From sequence record NC_104726.1: 64,000 nucleotides of DNA. One strand, 5' to 3'. This DNA comes from a phage. The notes beneath the pieces are model-generated. The model saw only the letters and a program-made list of their open reading frames with translations. It did not search any database and was not told where the DNA came from. Below, in pieces: positions 30 to 58,900 of this stretch (within the stretch, counting starts at the first letter, position 1; every line of letters begins with the position of its first letter). The translations under genes were made by a program, and so were the position numbers.

Positions 30-608
30 TCAGCGTTCATAGTAAATCTTATTTAACATTACCTCATCCTTTGCAGAAAGGATATCAAGATATGCATCAC
101 CAAATCTTCCTGCAACAACCTCTGCATGATACATCACTTCGTTAACATCGTCAAGAGTGATAACCGGATGACCATATCTTTCTGAATATTGTCTCAGGGT
201 GCGATGTAACGAGTCGTCATCATATGCAGACTTTTTAATATCACAAACACGACGAATAGCCTTGATGTCGAAAAAACCTGTGCGATACCACCCAAGAAAA
301 AGGTTTCGTGCAGTGTCAACATCTACATTGATACCATCAAGAACCTTATCTACAAGATAGCTGTCATCCTTTGGACCAGCGTCCTTAGTGCGAATGTAGT
401 TGCCATCTTTTCCAGGCGACATCTCCTTCTCATCCCCAACCTGCATGCCATCATTTGGCGGTGTTAGCCACTTATCCGGATGCTTACGATCACGAGCGTT
501 AGAATGATTACGCTGGAAACCGGGCTTCCACTTGAAAGTTTTCTCCATCTGTTCTTCATTCTGATAACGTTTTGCAATCTTTTCACGGTCATCTTTGCGT
601 GAACCCAT
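30..608 (-). CDS. hypothetical protein (192 aa)
   Basis: Long ORF on minus strand; no recognisable motif. Confidence 0.5.
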   Translation of the reverse strand: MGSRKDDREKIAKRYQNEEQMEKTFKWKPGFQRNHSNARDRKHPDKWLTPPNDGMQVGDEKEMSPGKDGNYIRTKDAGPKDDSYLVDKVLDGINVDVDTARNLFLGWYRTGFFDIKAIRRVCDIKKSAYDDDSLHRTLRQYSERYGHPVITLDDVNEVMYHAEVVAGRFGDAYLDILSAKDEVMLNKIYYER

Positions 609-1268: not shown

Positions 1269-1619
1269 CTAACCAGTTGTTGACATCCGAATAACTTCTT
1301 CTGGTGGCAAAACTTTGGAAAATGTGCATCTTTTACCTCTCCCTTGTGTGGATGTTTCAACCACTCCTGCACATTCTAAAGTTTTAACGCACGCTGCTGC
1401 TTTTGTTTTCTTTATCCCAACATCTGCTGCAATTTTCCTTGTGCTTGGTGTGAAGCGTGAATTTCCTCCAAGCTTATACCAGTTGTGCAGGTAGCAGTAT
1501 ACGATCTTGTCATACAAGTCAAGAACAACAACCTCCCCAGTTGTGTCATTCAAAACTTTTGACATAGATAGTATTTCAAGGGGGACTTTAAGATATAGCA
1601 GCTTATCCCCATCTTTCAT
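1269..1619 (-). CDS. hypothetical protein (116 aa), possibly DNA-binding
   Basis: ORF adjacent to the palindromic repeat array; basic C-terminus; no firm motif. Confidence 0.45.
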   Translation of the reverse strand: MKDGDKLLYLKVPLEILSMSKVLNDTTGEVVVLDLYDKIVYCYLHNWYKLGGNSRFTPSTRKIAADVGIKKTKAAACVKTLECAGVVETSTQGRGKRCTFSKVLPPEEVIRMSTTG

Positions 1620-2739: not shown

Positions 2740-3675
2740 ATGACAAATGAGGAACATATAATGAAGTATTTTAATGCAGACGACCTAGTTGACAAAGGTC
2801 TTGCAACCAGTAGGTATTACCCAGATCTCGGGTTAAAGATCTATAAATATGCTAGAAAAGTATTTTACAACAATTTATGGCATTTGTCCCCTCGTTTACT
2901 GGAGTGCCGAGGCATTGTTGTAGGTAATGAAGGAAATGTTGTGGCATGGCCCTTCACAAAAGTGTTTAACTTGGGAGAAAACTCCACCAACCTGCCTGAC
3001 AATAAGCTTGTGACTGCGGTAGAGAAAAAGAACGGATTCCTTGGTGTGGTATCATCTCATAAAGGTGACCTATTGTTCTCAACAACCGGGTCTCTTGATT
3101 CTCCATATTGTAACCTTGCAAAGGAAACCATCCAAGAGCAATGTGGTAATTTAGATCTTATCAAGAAGGTTATGGGCAATGAAAACATGACATTCATGTT
3201 TGAAATTTGTCACCCTTCAGATCCGCATATTGTTCAAGAAGACCATGGCGCATATTTGATAGGTTGCAGATATAATGATTCTGGAATAATGCTACCAGAA
3301 GCAGCTTTAGATGGGATTGCCAAATACCTTGGTGCAAAACGTCCTAACACTGTGCGTGAAATTCCGTTCAGCTATGCAAAAGAATTAGCTGCAGAAACAA
3401 GAGGTGAAGGGTATATGATTCGTAAGCCTTACTACCCTTATGATCTGCAGCTGAAGATCAAGTCTCCATACTATCTGGCACGGAAGGCAGTAATGAGGGG
3501 TAAAGCTTGGAAGATTTGGGATGATGATATCTTTAAACGTGTTGACGAAGAGTTTTACGGTATGGTAAAATTTATTCGTAGCAACTATACAGAAGATGTG
3601 TGGAATTGCTTATTAGAGCAGGAGCGTCGTGAGATACTGGACTACTATTTCCACAACGAGGACTATATGCAATGA
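2740..3675 (+). CDS. RNA ligase (covalent nucleotidyltransferase, Rnl/Trl1-like)
   Basis: Motif I K-K-N-G (EKKNGFLG, compare Trl1 KANG), motif III FMFEI, motif IV EGYMIRK, motif V LKIKS; divergent from the kinase-phosphoesterase operon. Confidence 0.7.
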   Translation: MTNEEHIMKYFNADDLVDKGLATSRYYPDLGLKIYKYARKVFYNNLWHLSPRLLECRGIVVGNEGNVVAWPFTKVFNLGENSTNLPDNKLVTAVEKKNGFLGVVSSHKGDLLFSTTGSLDSPYCNLAKETIQEQCGNLDLIKKVMGNENMTFMFEICHPSDPHIVQEDHGAYLIGCRYNDSGIMLPEAALDGIAKYLGAKRPNTVREIPFSYAKELAAETRGEGYMIRKPYYPYDLQLKIKSPYYLARKAVMRGKAWKIWDDDIFKRVDEEFYGMVKFIRSNYTEDVWNCLLEQERREILDYYFHNEDYMQ

Positions 3676-4022
3676 AGAAGTGGATTGTGTGGCTTGATGA
3701 TTTTAGAGATCCGTCAGATTATGGACTCCCAGACGCTCTGTGGCTAAAGAATTCTTCTGAGTTTATGGATTTTCTTAATGATAAGAGAAAGCTCTACAGA
3801 CGCGTATCTGAGTGGTATTTTGACAATGATCTAGGTGAAGTGCTTGAAGGGTACGACTGCTTCTCTGCGCTAGAGGAGAAACTTGTATTCGGAAAGCCAC
3901 CACTTATTGACAACGTGATTATTTTCGTGCATACTTCTAATCCATCGGCAGCTCGTAAATTTATGCTTGCTGCTGACTCATTCAAGAAGTTTGGAATAGA
4001 GATTAAACAAAACATCTACTGA
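3672..4022 (+). CDS. hypothetical protein (116 aa)
   Basis: ORF overlapping upstream stop (ATGA); between RNA ligase and Sir2 genes. Confidence 0.5.
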   Translation: MKKWIVWLDDFRDPSDYGLPDALWLKNSSEFMDFLNDKRKLYRRVSEWYFDNDLGEVLEGYDCFSALEEKLVFGKPPLIDNVIIFVHTSNPSAARKFMLAADSFKKFGIEIKQNIY

Positions 4023-4030
4023 GGACACTT

Positions 4031-4792
4031 ATGCGACGACTGATTATTATCTCCGGTGCTGGTTTGAGCGCTGAATCTGGTATTCCCACTTTCCGATCTG
4101 GTAGCACTGCAATGTGGGAGAATTTCAGCATCGATGAGGTGTGCAACATCCACACCTTTGCCAAGAATTACTATAAGGTGCATGACTTTTACAATGCACG
4201 TCGTGTAGCTCTGGGCAGTGTTGATCCTAACCTTGCACATCTTCGGATCGCTGAGTGGTATTCCCGCTGGTCTGGTCGTGTGATCAACCTTACCACCAAT
4301 GTAGATGATTTGCTGGAGCGTGCTGGTGTAAAACATGAAGATATTTTACATGTCCACGGGTATTTGCCTGAAATCACCTACGAAGATGCTGAAGGTAATG
4401 ATGTAATTAAAAATATCGGATACACGGAGGTAGATACAGGCAAGTATACCTGGGTTAAGCCCAATGTAGTGTTATTCGGTGAGGTTGCTCCTAAGTATAC
4501 AGACATGTATGACCTGTTGACATCTCTCACAAGCAATGATATGGTGATCCTAGTAGGTTGTTCTAACACAGTTATTAATTTTAACTGGGAATTGTTTCCT
4601 GCTACTTGTAAAGGCACAAAACTGCTGATTGTAAACAAGTATGACTCGCAGAGTGCAGATGGAAGTGGCATTTCACGTAGCGACCTTTATCAATATGAGG
4701 ATCGCGGGATCCCTGTATGGTTTAACGGTGCTGTTGACGCTTTCTCTGATAAAGCATTTATTGAAACTGTAGAAAACTTTATGGAACTTTAA
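4031..4792 (+). CDS. Sir2 (sirtuin) family NAD-dependent protein
   Basis: Canonical sirtuin signature GAGLSAESGIPTFR, TTNVDDL (QNID-like), catalytic HG in LHVHGYL. Confidence 0.8.
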   Translation: MRRLIIISGAGLSAESGIPTFRSGSTAMWENFSIDEVCNIHTFAKNYYKVHDFYNARRVALGSVDPNLAHLRIAEWYSRWSGRVINLTTNVDDLLERAGVKHEDILHVHGYLPEITYEDAEGNDVIKNIGYTEVDTGKYTWVKPNVVLFGEVAPKYTDMYDLLTSLTSNDMVILVGCSNTVINFNWELFPATCKGTKLLIVNKYDSQSADGSGISRSDLYQYEDRGIPVWFNGAVDAFSDKAFIETVENFMEL

Positions 4793-4805
4793 AAGGAGAC
4801 CTTTA

Positions 4806-5519
4806 ATGCTGAATACTAAACTGATCGACAACCTGGAAAAACTGTCTCAGCCTGAAAACTACCTTTGGTCTGCCAACTGGGTGGAAAACTGGAACCGTGT
4901 GGCAGCTAAAGTGAAAAAATCATACACACCATTCGAATTACAGCTTAGCTTCATTGAGGAAGAGTTCAATGAGGTTTTGGAAGAGCTGGAGAAAGGTGAT
5001 GGTGGAGATCACCTGCTAAAAGAGGCCTGCGATCTTCACGTTGTCACAAGTTATGCCGCTTATCTTGTTAATGATAATCACGAAAAGTGGTCAAACCTGT
5101 TTGATAATCCACGAGGTCTTAAGTTCAAGATCGGTGAGTTCTATGATACACTGATCGCTGCGAAAAACACATCCAAGCAAAGAGCGTCAGCTTACCGCTT
5201 AGCGGAGTTGTCAACAGCTTTGCTGTTCCAGCTTCGCGGCGATGTGTGTGGGATGATGCGGAAGGTTCTCAAATCTAATGACAGCAAGTTTGCACGGATC
5301 AACCATCTACGATATTCTCACGGTGCCAGTGCAGATATGTCTACTGAATTGCTCATAGAGTTAGAGATTGAAGATCTTGAGCGTCGTTTTGGTGGTCGCT
5401 ACGAAGGTTTCGTTGCTAAAGAGGAGTTCTACAACGGTAATAAAGTTATTATATTCCTTGACAGTAAAGGTAAGATTATGAAGCCTTCGAGCTTCAAGGA
5501 TGTAACAGAGTATATTTAA
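4806..5519 (+). CDS. hypothetical protein, possible MazG-like all-alpha NTP pyrophosphohydrolase
   Basis: Acidic EEEFNEVLEELEKGD...KEACDL pattern resembling the MazG/HisE E-x-x-E metal motif; weak. Confidence 0.45.
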   Translation: MLNTKLIDNLEKLSQPENYLWSANWVENWNRVAAKVKKSYTPFELQLSFIEEEFNEVLEELEKGDGGDHLLKEACDLHVVTSYAAYLVNDNHEKWSNLFDNPRGLKFKIGEFYDTLIAAKNTSKQRASAYRLAELSTALLFQLRGDVCGMMRKVLKSNDSKFARINHLRYSHGASADMSTELLIELEIEDLERRFGGRYEGFVAKEEFYNGNKVIIFLDSKGKIMKPSSFKDVTEYI

Positions 5520-5525
5520 CAACAT

Positions 5526-5548
5526 AGCCGGGATTACCCGGCTTTACT
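5526..5548 (+). terminator. rho-independent terminator-like hairpin
   Basis: agccggg-atta-cccggct followed by a T-run, just after the stop at 5519. Confidence 0.5.
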
Positions 5549-5581: not shown

Positions 5582-5890
5582 ATGTACAAGCATTCCAGAG
5601 ATCTTGAAAAAGATGCTGTGTTTGGCGACCAGATGAAGGAGCTGATCAAACTTATAGGTAGAATGGAAGATAAGTTTGACACTAAAATCTACATCGATAG
5701 CAAGATCTTCAACCACAAAATATGGACAAATGTGTGTGTTGGGCTACATGGTGATAAAGATATTGTAAATTTGGTTGTAATAAAGTTCATAGTGTGGCAG
5801 AATAGGACTATACGTTATTCCGATCCACACTTACTTGTTTATCCTATAAAAGACCTACTACAGAAGGAGGACTGCAATGCCGTTATTTAA
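5582..5890 (+). CDS. hypothetical protein (102 aa)
   Basis: ORF with upstream SD-like sequence. Confidence 0.45.
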   Translation: MYKHSRDLEKDAVFGDQMKELIKLIGRMEDKFDTKIYIDSKIFNHKIWTNVCVGLHGDKDIVNLVVIKFIVWQNRTIRYSDPHLLVYPIKDLLQKEDCNAVI

Positions 5891-6146
5891 TCTTGCTAAA
5901 CCTGTAGAAGCACACCAGTTTGATGGAAGCTCTTCATCAGTATCTGATCTGCAACGGTGGATTGATACAGGTGTGTTTACATCGTCACCTGTTCGGACCA
6001 GAGATATTCGTCGCATGTGTGAGCTTGTTGAGCCGTTTGGCAACTTGGTTTTGTACCAGGGAGATTGGTTAGTTGACTTTATGGGAGACTGGTTGGTAAT
6101 GAGTAAAGAAGAGATGTTTAAAATTTTTAAGGAAGAGGCCGAGTAA
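5877..6146 (+). CDS. hypothetical protein (89 aa)
   Basis: ORF overlapping neighbours on both sides. Confidence 0.45.
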   Translation: MPLFNLAKPVEAHQFDGSSSSVSDLQRWIDTGVFTSSPVRTRDIRRMCELVEPFGNLVLYQGDWLVDFMGDWLVMSKEEMFKIFKEEAE

Positions 6147-7429
6147 TGCATCAAATCAAAACAACACTGTACGCACTGAACAAAGATGGCAGCTACCAAC
6201 AGTGGAAAGTATTCACTGATGGCGAAAAGGTTATCGTAGAGTTTGGCAAGCTTGACGGTAAATTGCAGTACAAAGAGACGGTATGCACACCTAAAAACGT
6301 AGGTCGTGCCAACGAGACTACAGCTGAGCAACAGGCCGAGCTTGAGGCTATCAGCAAGTGGGAAAAACAAGTCCGTCTGGGGTATGTTGAAAACATGGAA
6401 GATTGCGAGCAGGGTGTTGATCTTTTACCTATGCTGGTGCATGACTACCTGAAGCGTGGCAAGGCACTTAAATTACCTTGCTGGATCTTGCGTAAGTTAG
6501 ATGGCCTTCGTCTGCTTGTTGTTTTCCAAAATGGTGAGCCTAAATTTATTTCCCGTGGTAATAAGTCCTACCCTATTCAAGGAAAGCTTTTAGAGCAACT
6601 TCGTTCTTTCCATTCTACCACTGGGATTAAACAACTTGATGGGGAACTATACATTCATGGTCTTCCTTTGCAGAAAATAGTGTCTCTTGCTAAACGGTGG
6701 CGCACACAGGAAGAGATTCAGGCCGAGATCGATAAAGACTATGAGGCAGATAAAAAACGCCGTCATGCAGCAATTAAGGCAGGCTTATCAACATACAAAA
6801 ACTTCAACAAGGTAGATATTCCTGTCGATGTTGAGCCTGTTCGTGATGATTTGCGTTACGGTGGATACTGTAGCTACGATCTGGAGTATCACATTTTTGA
6901 TATTCCTAGCGACAAGGTGTGGTGGGATCCAGAAACAGAGTCTGGACGCTGCAAGGATCTTATGGATGCAGAGGATACCGTTACCACTCTGATGCTTGAT
7001 CATATCAAGGTTGTTGACGCAGAGCTTGCGTACACAGTTGATCATTGCGAAGAATCTGTTGGTATATTCATGTCCGAAGGATATGAAGGTACTATCATGC
7101 GTAATTTCTGCGGTAAATATGAGTATGGTCAGCGAACATCTGAAGCATTGAAATGGAAAAAGTTCAACGACGCAGAGGTGAAAGTTATTGACGTTGAGAA
7201 AGATAAGAATGATGAAGGTGTTCTTATCTGTGTTGACAAGGAAGGTATTGTTGTTAAAATGAAGATGAAAGGTACGCACGAGGAGCGTAGCTATGACAGA
7301 ATGCAGGAAATGATCGGCAAGTTTGTCACCTTCAAATATCAAGCAAGGACAGAAGACAACAACTACCAATTCCCTGTCGGTATCTGCGTCCGAAATGTTA
7401 ACCCAGATACTTGGGAGGTTCTGGAATGA
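6146..7429 (+). CDS. ATP-dependent DNA ligase
   Basis: Motif I KLDGLR (KxDGxR), motif IV EGTIMR, motif V KWKK; 427 aa. Confidence 0.8.
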   Translation: MHQIKTTLYALNKDGSYQQWKVFTDGEKVIVEFGKLDGKLQYKETVCTPKNVGRANETTAEQQAELEAISKWEKQVRLGYVENMEDCEQGVDLLPMLVHDYLKRGKALKLPCWILRKLDGLRLLVVFQNGEPKFISRGNKSYPIQGKLLEQLRSFHSTTGIKQLDGELYIHGLPLQKIVSLAKRWRTQEEIQAEIDKDYEADKKRRHAAIKAGLSTYKNFNKVDIPVDVEPVRDDLRYGGYCSYDLEYHIFDIPSDKVWWDPETESGRCKDLMDAEDTVTTLMLDHIKVVDAELAYTVDHCEESVGIFMSEGYEGTIMRNFCGKYEYGQRTSEALKWKKFNDAEVKVIDVEKDKNDEGVLICVDKEGIVVKMKMKGTHEERSYDRMQEMIGKFVTFKYQARTEDNNYQFPVGICVRNVNPDTWEVLE

Positions 7430-58441: not shown

Positions 58442-58900
58442 TCAACACTTTTTATACTCTACTACAACCACATCAATATCTGCAGTTGCAAGATTAATTA
58501 CATCTTCTACGTGTTCCCACTTTAGACCGCCAATACCGCATCCGATTTTAGGAATGTAGAACGGCAATGACACACCTTTGAATACCTCGTTGACTCGCTC
58601 AAAACCTTTCATTATTGAGAAGTATTCAGCATTGGGCCCTGGGTAGAACTGGGTATACAGGTTGATTCCATATACGACCCTGTTCTTGGCAAAATGCTCC
58701 CAACAAGAAAACATACCCAGCTTGTCCAGATTACCATAGGCAGTCTCTTTGTCGGCTGCCAGTGCTTGAGGGAACTCACGGGCAATATCTTTCGCTATGC
58801 CTGCACCCATTGTATGAAAGCAGTTACAACCGTGGATCAGGTGACCAGCACCGCTCTTAAAAAGGGAGATTAAATCTCCACCTACAGTATCAATAATCAC
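58442..58900 (-). CDS. Macro-domain protein (ADP-ribose binding/processing)
   Basis: Macro signatures HGCNCFHTMGAGIAKDI and IPKIGCGIGGL (compare N-x-x-G-G-G-V and G-x-G-x-x-G blocks). Confidence 0.7.
   Translation of the reverse strand: MIIDTVGGDLISLFKSGAGHLIHGCNCFHTMGAGIAKDIAREFPQALAADKETAYGNLDKLGMFSCWEHFAKNRVVYGINLYTQFYPGPNAEYFSIMKGFERVNEVFKGVSLPFYIPKIGCGIGGLKWEHVEDVINLATADIDVVVVEYKKC

Follow-up and report, generated by a model that had tools for sequence, protein, structure and literature searches.

Why would a phage keep a sirtuin gene among genes for RNA repair? The question is raised by a stretch of phage DNA of 64,000 nucleotides (nt) (sequence record NC_104726.1; hereafter the window), in which the open reading frame (ORF) at positions 4031-4792 on the plus strand encodes a Sir2-family protein of 253 amino acids (aa), directly downstream of RNA-repair genes. 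The answer that we favor, as a tentative one that falls somewhat short of an even chance, is that the sirtuin performs, within a "heal-and-seal" module for phage RNA repair, the step that depends on nicotinamide adenine dinucleotide (NAD+), namely the removal of an RNA 2'-phosphate as done by KptA. The module itself probably repairs tRNAs or other RNAs that have been cut by host anticodon nucleases or toxins.

The ORF was compared with profile, sequence, and structure collections. The match to the Pfam model SIR2 (PF02146) had an E value of 2.4e-27 and 96.5 bits (cut-off 24), covering residues 9-181 of the protein and positions 1-178 of the 180 profile positions, and the match to phrog_2162 had an E value of 4e-108. 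Therefore, the similarity is far beyond chance. The protein contains SGAGLSAESGIPTFR at residues 8-22, which is the GAGxS...FR sirtuin signature that had been pointed out in an earlier reading of this DNA made from its letters alone (the sequence-only reading). Also present are the QNID-like and catalytic His motifs of that reading, in the form of TTNVDDL (residues 88-94) and LHVHG, the His109 of which aligns with the catalytic His of Escherichia coli CobB. In an alignment of 57 Sir2 sequences (alignment A1), residues G9, A10, G11, S16, F21, R22, C38, Y54, R57, R58, N90, D92, H109, and G110 were invariant, as were T89 and V91 of TTNVD, in which Thr takes the place of the Gln found in TQNID. 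The protein is a bona fide sirtuin and, judging from these motifs, is apparently catalytically intact.

The solved structures closest in sequence were those of E. coli CobB (1s5p, E value 1e-20, about 27% identity), SIRT5, and the archaeal Sir2-Af1/Af2. An AlphaFold2 (AF2) model of the protein had a mean predicted local distance difference test (pLDDT) value of 90.2 and a predicted TM-score (pTM) of 0.88, and when this model was used in a Foldseek search, the top 50 matches in the PDB were all sirtuins, with CobB as the best (E value 7.5e-19, TM-score 0.75-0.84), followed by Sir2-Af1 and SIRT5. The class assignment that the sequence-only reading had called for therefore places the protein nearest to the class III enzymes CobB and SIRT5 by both sequence and fold, yet below the curated cut-offs for CobB: the NCBIfam deacylase models matched with E values of 1e-35, but all seven matching models scored under their cut-offs, with 122.9 bits compared to a cut-off of 243 for NF001753 and 103.4 compared to 320 for NF040867. 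Because the equivalog cut-offs of CobB exceed these scores by far, the phage protein represents a clade distinct from CobB.

The phage sirtuin shares with CobB and SIRT5 the GAGxSxxSGIxTFR motif, FYNARR, the N/D motif, the catalytic His, and VVxFGE. The class III FYNARR sequence (Y54/R57, equivalent to CobB Y92/R95) is identical to that of CobB, and the Y54/R57 pair is kept in rV5-, T5-, Mydo-, phAPEC8-, and KVP40-type members of the clade. The phage protein differs from CobB, in addition to the Thr in TTNVD and the low overall identity, in an extra C-terminal extension (residues ~203-253), in a Cys at position 38, and in the absence of the four zinc cysteines. The sequence-only reading had suggested a search for zinc-ribbon cysteines; there were none in residues 111-143 of the protein, none were conserved in this region in 120 close homologues, and they were likewise missing from the T5, phAPEC8, KVP40, UB, Mydo-like, and Hena1-like members. 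More distant relatives (E value ~1e-35) retain CxxC...CxxC and TQN(I/V)D. The β-hairpin (zinc) module is nevertheless still predicted in the phage protein, with a pLDDT of ~95 in the AF2 model. The clade-invariant Cys38 corresponds, by the alignment offset, to CobB Ala76, which is among the residues mutated in engineered CobB variants and which we take to be a residue of the acyl pocket. The YxxR pair of SIRT5 and CobB binds a carboxylate, and our own suggestion, made by analogy, is that the Y54/R57 pair could plausibly bind a phosphate.

The gene lies in DNA that is well represented in the databases. Over positions 2740-5519, the nucleotide sequence has 100% identity to that of Escherichia phage nomine (MN850649.1; Vequintavirus, an rV5-like myovirus) and at least 90% identity to 120 phage records; the window is from an rV5-like Vequintavirus. 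In the nomine annotation, the four genes of this region are labeled RNA ligase 1, hypothetical protein, "NAD-dependent protein SIR2 family deacetylase", and, wrongly for what is a MazG-like gene, "putative Sir2-like protein". The first gene, at 2761-3675 on the plus strand (the ORF is open from 2740, and 2761 is the annotated start), encodes a T4 Rnl1 (gp63)-type RNA ligase, with matches to RNA_lig_T4_1 (PF09511; E value 1e-14, 55.4 bits, cut-off 28.3), to phrog_562 (2.7e-65), and, below the cut-off, to TIGR02308 (7.8e-10). It is followed on the same strand by a gene for a 116-aa protein (3672-4022), the sirtuin gene, and a gene for a 237-aa protein (4806-5519).

The sequence-only reading had placed the Sir2-family ORF right after RNA-repair genes and in one transcription unit with the ligase, the 116-aa protein, and the MazG-like protein, and both statements agree with what was found. 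The ligase stop codon and the start codon of the next gene overlap in ATGA at 3672-3675, the gaps on either side of the sirtuin gene are 8 nt (upstream) and 13 nt (downstream), and a strong Shine-Dalgarno ribosome-binding site (GAGGA or AAGGAG) precedes each of the four genes. A terminator-like GC-rich hairpin lies just past the last gene at 5526-5543 (plus strand; AGCCGGGATTACCCGGCT, 7 pairs of which 6 are G-C) and is followed by the T-rich tail TTACTTATTA; it is the probable end of the operon. No sigma-70-like promoter on the plus strand was detected directly upstream of the operon in the divergent intergenic region 2640-2760; minus-strand promoter-like matches were found at 2696-2668 and 2795-2768, and promoter-like matches inside the operon were at chance level (20 found, with 15.7 +/- 3.7 expected). 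The ratio of nonsynonymous to synonymous substitution rates (dN/dS), calculated against a relative of 89% identity, was 0.04-0.11 across the four genes (0.11 for the sirtuin), which indicates purifying selection on all of them. The arrangement fits a tightly packed operon encoding, in order, Rnl1, cREC, Sir2, and a MazG/HisE-like pyrophosphatase.

The 116-aa protein, which had been described as uncharacterized in the sequence-only reading, falls into an already named family, cREC_REC (PF20274, "cyclic-phosphate processing receiver domain"; E value 9.1e-14, 52.3 bits, cut-off 27), and matches phrog_1479 (6e-33). The receiver-like acidic residues D9, D10, D51, and D53, along with S89 and K96, were invariant in eight homologues. 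The protein is predicted to be a metal-independent cyclic phosphodiesterase that acts on RNA with a 2',3'-cyclic end (RNA>p) or on ADP-ribose 1''-2'' cyclic phosphate. In one lineage (loci L042 and L072, represented by the 153-kb contig IMGVR_UViG_3300041405_000148; cREC ORF at L042 2347-2976), the cREC protein appears to be 210 aa long because of a ~95-aa N-terminal extension that lacks a counterpart in the other homologues; this may be a start-codon artefact or a real extra domain.

The possible MazG-like assignment of the fourth gene product received moderate support, which came from the family and not from the window protein by itself. Alone, this protein matched PRA-PH with an E value of only 0.089, whereas 18 of 20 family members matched PRA-PH (PF01503; best 4.8e-6) and 9 of the 20 matched MazG (PF03819). 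The protein also matched phrog_671, "nucleotide pyrophosphohydrolase" (5.7e-22), and its EEExxE...CD motif aligns with HisE (1yvw) and MazG (3cra). It appears to consist of an N-terminal MazG/HisE-like, all-α nucleotide pyrophosphohydrolase domain and a conserved C-terminal domain of unknown function.

Two further genes are divergent from the ligase operon, on the minus strand. The one at 2229-2639, the start of which (2639) was taken from the nomine annotation, encodes a P-loop nucleotide/polynucleotide kinase-like protein (GLPGSGKST; AAA_33 1.6e-10, Zeta_toxin 1.7e-4, phrog_2071 3.7e-58, and phrog_505 "polynucleotide kinase" 7.4e-10) that is a candidate 5'-OH kinase. The other, at 1667-2221, encodes a calcineurin-like metallophosphoesterase (Metallophos_2 1.9e-6, Metallophos 6.5e-6, and phrog_547 "phosphoesterase" 3.7e-52) that is a candidate enzyme for the healing of 2',3'-phosphate ends. 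An ATP-dependent DNA ligase gene lies downstream of the operon at 6146-7429 on the plus strand (DNA_ligase_A_M 5.8e-9, DNA_ligase_OB_2 1.8e-7, and phrog_114 3e-83). Taken together, the locus is a complete RNA end-healing and sealing kit, with cREC, the sirtuin, and the pyrophosphatase as extra components. Scans of the window for tRNA genes and Rfam families found nothing.

It was found that this company recurs in other phages. The sirtuin clade comprises 806 database clusters at E < 1e-5, and a tblastn search found it in 987 phage records, including those of T5 (T5.102, 56% identity), Klebsiella Mydovirus-like phages, phAPEC8, KVP40, and jumbo phages. Gene neighborhoods were counted in 59 Sir2-anchored viral contigs, using genes within 8 kb of the sirtuin gene. 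The linkage to RNA repair was derived anew in four phage lineages (rV5-like, Mydo-like, T5-like, and Asteriusvirus jumbo). The full set of Rnl1, cREC, kinase, metallophosphoesterase, MazG-like protein, and DNA ligase was present in 8 loci, and the same repair set with an undetectable cREC in 3 more; the metallophosphoesterase travels with Rnl1 and the kinase in 13 loci. A HAD_SAK phosphatase gene and DUF7415 genes were beside the sirtuin gene in 28 loci of the T5-like type, and the T5 phosphatase, T5.105, matched PF18143 (HAD_SAK_2, "HAD domain in Swiss Army Knife RNA repair proteins") with an E value of 4e-20. At 13 of the 59 loci, no repair-set or HAD_SAK/DUF7415 genes were found within the 8 kb. 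Therefore, the linkage is recurrent over independent lineages, although it is not universal.

Gene order differs between these lineages. In rV5-like loci, the genes run Rnl1-cREC-Sir2-MazG-like, and those of the kinase and phosphoesterase are divergent; in Mydo-like loci, they run phosphoesterase-Rnl1-cREC-kinase-Sir2-DNA ligase, and the MazG-like gene follows further downstream. In loci of the rV5-, Mydo-, Hena1-, and phAPEC8-like types, the DNA ligase gene lies next to either the sirtuin gene or the repair block. The jumbo phage UB (Asteriusvirus; locus L080, 5714-8394), which is unrelated, has the sirtuin gene followed in order by genes for a Nudix protein (Nudt16-like, 1.3e-18), cREC (1.5e-22), and a PIN-PhoH fusion.

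The UB Nudix protein resembles Nudt16, of the U8 snoRNA-decapping enzyme family. Enzymes of the Nudt16 type act on RNA caps and ADP-ribose conjugates, and by this analogy we leave open a link of the UB protein to RNA 5'-end or NAD-cap processing. In T5 (locus L061, 7651-8481) and in other loci such as L003 and L036, the HAD_SAK phosphatase gene directly downstream of the sirtuin gene is followed by two tandem DUF7415 paralogues (T5.106 and T5.107); the pair accompanies the sirtuin gene in 28-31 of the 59 viral loci.

The favored removal of 2'-phosphates would proceed as follows. Host metal-independent RNases would leave RNA ends with a 2',3'-cyclic phosphate and a 5'-OH, the P-loop kinase would add a phosphate to the 5' end, and the cyclic phosphate would be opened by cREC and/or the metallophosphoesterase. 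Where a 2'-phosphate is left over, at an end or at a sealed junction, the sirtuin would put ADP-ribose from NAD+ onto this phosphate, and His109 would activate the ribose 2''-OH such that the RNA is displaced. The products would be RNA with a 2'-OH, nicotinamide, and ADP-ribose 1''-2'' cyclic phosphate, which would amount to the KptA/Tpt1 reaction on a sirtuin scaffold. The break would be sealed by Rnl1, and the ADP-ribose by-product would be degraded by cREC and the MazG-like pyrophosphatase, or, in jumbo phages, by the Nudix protein. Of this scheme, the identity of the domains, the intact set of NAD and catalytic motifs, the lost zinc site, and the recurrent linkage are observed, and we infer which RNA is acted on, by what chemistry, and what cREC and the MazG-like protein contribute.

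Several results are in favor of this scheme. The catalytic residues of the sirtuin are intact, invariant in the 57 sequences, and under the purifying selection given above, and the gene is embedded with those of the kinase, metallophosphoesterase, Rnl1, and cREC, in a linkage that recurs with differing gene orders and partners. A pyrophosphatase gene stands beside those of Sir2 and cREC in both the rV5-like version (MazG-like) and the jumbo version (Nudix), and this company fits the clean-up of an ADP-ribose-type by-product. The anion-binding pair Y54/R57, which could plausibly take a phosphate, is retained in the types of phage named above. In formal terms, the sirtuin and Tpt1 mechanisms are parallel: an oxygen nucleophile attacks C1'' of NAD+, and a subsequent attack by the 2''-OH yields a 1'',2''-cyclic species. 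The same prediction was reached independently by Iyer et al. (2022; PMC9503650).

Other results weigh against it. The support for an RNA substrate comes entirely from gene context, in which the function of cREC is itself predicted. The nearest relatives of the sirtuin are proven protein deacylases, with the acyl-pocket and FGE peptide-binding positions conservatively retained, and R57 is lost in the UB member (FYNTLR). In phAPEC8-like genomes (loci L073 and L074, compared to L035 and L034 on the same contigs), the repair block cREC-metallophosphoesterase-Rnl1-kinase-DNA ligase-MazG-like is intact without Sir2, and the sirtuin gene is ~32 kb away among genes without recognizable domains; the neighbors scanned around the KVP40 gene had no repair domains, and Pfam scans of the sirtuin-flanking genes of phAPEC8 and KVP40 yielded only domains of unknown function (DUFs) or nothing. 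RNA repair of the T4 Pnkp/Rnl1 type needs no removal of a 2'-phosphate, and presumably the metallophosphoesterase might clear both phosphates. The phage sirtuin is also acidic (isoelectric point, pI, 4.9; net charge -12), in contrast to E. coli KptA (pI 9.4). Little weight attaches to this difference, given that the DNA ligase of the phage also has a net charge of -11, such that charge as a proxy for RNA binding is not decisive.

KptA/Tpt1 is the proposed functional analogue of the phage sirtuin, as a user of NAD+ that works alongside RNA ligases and cyclic phosphodiesterases and whose by-product, ADP-ribose 1''-2'' cyclic phosphate, calls for a cyclic phosphodiesterase and additional processing. 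The fold of KptA/Tpt1 belongs to the ADP-ribosyltransferase (ART) superfamily and is unrelated to Sir2. Homology of the phage protein to the KptA family was considered and rejected, given that it is a sirtuin and not an ART-fold protein, and so the proposed likeness would be functional only. KptA itself was found in 98 phage records, mostly of jumbo phages and Clostridioides phages; the KptA neighbors scanned in two jumbo phages included no cREC, ligase, or Nudix gene and no recognizable repair domains, and E. coli KptA used as a query had no relative in any of the fetched Sir2 or cREC loci.

The window locus shares with the T4 Pnkp-Rnl1 pathway an Rnl1-type ligase, a 5'-kinase, a 3'-end phosphoesterase, and a presumed role in countering anticodon nucleases. 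In contrast to T4, separate proteins supply the kinase and the phosphoesterase, the latter belongs to the calcineurin type instead of the HAD type, and cREC, the sirtuin, and the MazG-like protein are additional components that T4 lacks.

A more specific form of the proposed 2'-phosphate removal can be put forward as a speculation that is possible but to be held with some reserve. The zinc-less clade would represent the first known case of a sirtuin with a nucleic acid as its substrate, in which the Y54/R57 pocket and Cys38 would hold an RNA 2'-phosphate in place of the succinyl carboxylate and Tpt1 chemistry would follow. The cREC protein would be a new ADP-ribose 1''-2'' cyclic phosphate phosphodiesterase, and the MazG-like or Nudix enzyme would complete a self-contained system by which T5-, rV5-, and jumbo-type phages repair RNA at the expense of NAD+ and dispose of the by-product. 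If the prediction of Iyer et al. is right, sirtuins have a second chemistry, directed at nucleic acids, and tRNA repair in phages has a branch that depends on NAD+ and is lacking in T4. This would bear on the ways in which T5-like, rV5-like, and jumbo phages evade anticodon nucleases and comparable defenses that cut RNA. The clade in question is large, with its 987 phage records that include the model phage T5.

The gene, its neighborhood, and the functional hypothesis were already published in 2022 and are not novel. Iyer, Burroughs, Anand, de Souza, and Aravind (Viruses 14:1977; PMC9503650, section 3.7.3) described the same sirtuin neighborhood, with Escherichia phage V5 and Proteus phage Mydo as prototypes. 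Their type 2 neighborhood contains a sirtuin, a T4-like RNA ligase, cREC, a nucleotide kinase, a pyrophosphatase of the MazG superfamily, and, optionally, a calcineurin-like phosphoesterase; type 1 is a jumbo-phage neighborhood with 2H, Nudix, cREC, and PIN, and type 3 is that of the T5-like phage SP15 with a HAD "Swiss-army-knife" phosphatase. They proposed that the sirtuin strips 2'-phosphates from RNA with the use of NAD+, as KptA/Tpt1 does, and that neighboring proteins open cyclic phosphates or process the ADP-ribose cyclic phosphate. The cREC domain had been defined in a 2021 jumbo-phage paper from the same group.

The window locus has no substantive difference from type 2: it comes from the same phage group and has the same gene set, every component of which we re-identified. 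The order Rnl1 (1e-14), cREC (9e-14), and Sir2, with overlaps or gaps of at most 8 nt, reproduces the type 2 adjacency, and the kinase (1.6e-10), the metallophosphoesterase (1.9e-6), and the MazG/HisE-like gene, the last recognized at the family level, are present in the same cluster. Full-text literature searches for experimental work on phage sirtuins, T5.102, or cREC found none, only comparative papers from the Aravind laboratory and genome announcements. Because the gene is routinely annotated and the neighborhood and hypothesis are in the literature, the present finding adds little; the details beyond the 2022 paper are the clade-wide loss of the zinc tetrad, the retention of YxxR, the invariant Cys38 at the CobB A76 position, and the unlinked sirtuin gene of phAPEC8-like phages.

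The main rival explanation, which we regard as rather unlikely but in need of serious consideration, is that the protein is a CobB/SIRT5-like lysine deacylase (a deacetylase or desuccinylase) that acts on host or phage proteins, such as lysine-dependent ligases, translation factors, or metabolic enzymes, and thereby optimizes the infected cell. On this view, the gene would owe its position to co-regulation or to a protein target among the repair components. The similarities described above speak for such an enzyme: CobB (1e-20, 27% identity) and SIRT5 are nearest in sequence and fold, deacylase models match at 1e-35, and the class III YxxR, catalytic His, and VVxFGE peptide-staple motif are kept; in addition, the phage macro domain of the TARG1/Poa1-like type described below could hydrolyze O-acyl-ADP-ribose. 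However, the scores of 123 and 103 bits are far from the CobB equivalog cut-offs of 243 and 320, and all four cysteines of the zinc module, which helps to shape the peptide cleft, have been lost across the clade. The genomic context differs from that of CobB and SIRT5 as well, being RNA repair and not metabolism, and a general deacylase role leaves unexplained the linkage to cREC, HAD_SAK, and Nudix genes in unrelated phage lineages. The macro gene, moreover, has no specific association with the sirtuin gene.

It appears improbable that the protein is instead an NAD+ glycohydrolase or an enzyme that manipulates NAD metabolites, whether against the NAD-based immunity of the host or for host shut-off. 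Sir2 domains can be NADases, the NAD-binding motifs are intact, and pyrophosphatase genes adjoin (MazG-like here and Nudix in jumbo phages). The sequence-only reading had drawn an analogy to the NAD-depleting Sir2 effectors of bacterial defense systems, which was not supported. Although the phage protein is of the same superfamily as the defense NADases ThsA, DSR1/2, SIR2-HerA, and SIR2-pAgo and uses the same NAD+ substrate, none of 5,027 PADLOC defense models matched it at E <= 0.01, and membership of the defense-type Sir2 proteins was rejected on this result. As a domain of 253 aa it stands alone, and no sensor or partner (SLOG, TIR, HerA, or pAgo) is fused to it or encoded beside it, its neighbors being Rnl1, cREC, the MazG-like protein, the kinase, and the metallophosphoesterase, and it is much nearer to canonical class III deacylases, with the substrate-pocket features of transferase or deacylase sirtuins retained. 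Furthermore, a lytic phage would be harmed by the destruction of NAD+, which would imitate an NAD-depleting defense instead of countering it, and NADase-type domains are under-represented in phages (Iyer et al.; PMC9503650).

The sequence-only reading had also noted a macro-domain gene elsewhere in the window and paired it with the sirtuin as an eraser with a writer. The gene is real, at 58442-58900 on the minus strand (PF01661; E value 1e-5, 25.9 bits, cut-off 22), whereas the pairing was not supported. The nearest solved relatives of its product were an "RNase III inhibitor" (5m3i), followed by an ADP-ribose 1''-phosphate phosphatase (6lfu) and O-acetyl-ADP-ribose deacetylase 1/C6orf130 (TARG1); we take 5m3i to be a DarG macrodomain and 6lfu to be yeast Poa1p. 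DarG models matched with E values of 1.6e-13 (PADLOC) and 1.8e-12 (NCBIfam, below the cut-off). The protein is a homologue of T4 Tk.4 and is found in 2,699 phage records compared to 987 for Sir2; T4-like phages are among the former, and none were among the Sir2 matches listed. A dedicated partnership with the sirtuin was rejected on the grounds of distance (~54 kb), strand, and distribution, and the direct coupling seen in SirTM-macro pairs is lacking at this distance and orientation. The phage sirtuin clade was likewise described as not coupled to a macro gene by Iyer et al. (PMC9503650). The macro protein could process a by-product of the sirtuin without a specific tie to it, and a role against DarT-type DNA ADP-ribosylation is at least as plausible.

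The weakest of the explanations, that the sirtuin is a macromolecular ADP-ribosyltransferase that writes on proteins or on RNA or DNA ends and has the macro protein as its dedicated eraser, is highly improbable: the genome does hold both domains, and the viral contig L048 has a macro gene ~6 kb from the sirtuin gene, but a macro gene was within 8 kb in only 1 of the 59 Sir2-anchored loci, many of the phage records with a Tk.4-type macro domain have no detected Sir2, and the likeness to the DarG antitoxin suggests a separate role against DarT.

The macro protein is 85% identical to that of nomine and 98.7% identical to that of phage Murica, and no record reached 99%. The window is mosaic in relation to the database phages: the operon is 100% identical to nomine and the macro protein only 85%.

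A few minor features of the operon region and its relatives were also recorded. Between the operon and the DNA ligase gene, two small proteins of unknown function are encoded on the plus strand at 5582-5890 (102 aa, phrog_7684) and 5877-6146 (89 aa, phrog_14585), and homologues of both remain in the repair/ligase cluster of Mydo-like and Hena1-like phages despite the reshuffled gene order. Approximately 18-25 records labeled "Campylobacter phage" (MG065642-MG065689) carry the operon with 96-99.6% identity to rV5-, T5-, and phAPEC8-like phages of E. coli, and the host labels of these records look doubtful. At 1112-1197, a unit of 21-22 nt (GTGTCCGTATCACGGACAGTTA) is repeated in tandem to give four copies, and every copy contains the near-perfect palindrome TGTCCGTnnnACGGACA. 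These repeats are located in a 660-bp gap between the gene of a helix-turn-helix (HTH) protein (1269-1619, minus strand) and a gene encoding a 192-aa protein (30-608, minus strand), and they could serve the neighboring HTH protein as operator or iteron sites, or else form stacked hairpins; the nomine record annotates them only as a "repeat_region".

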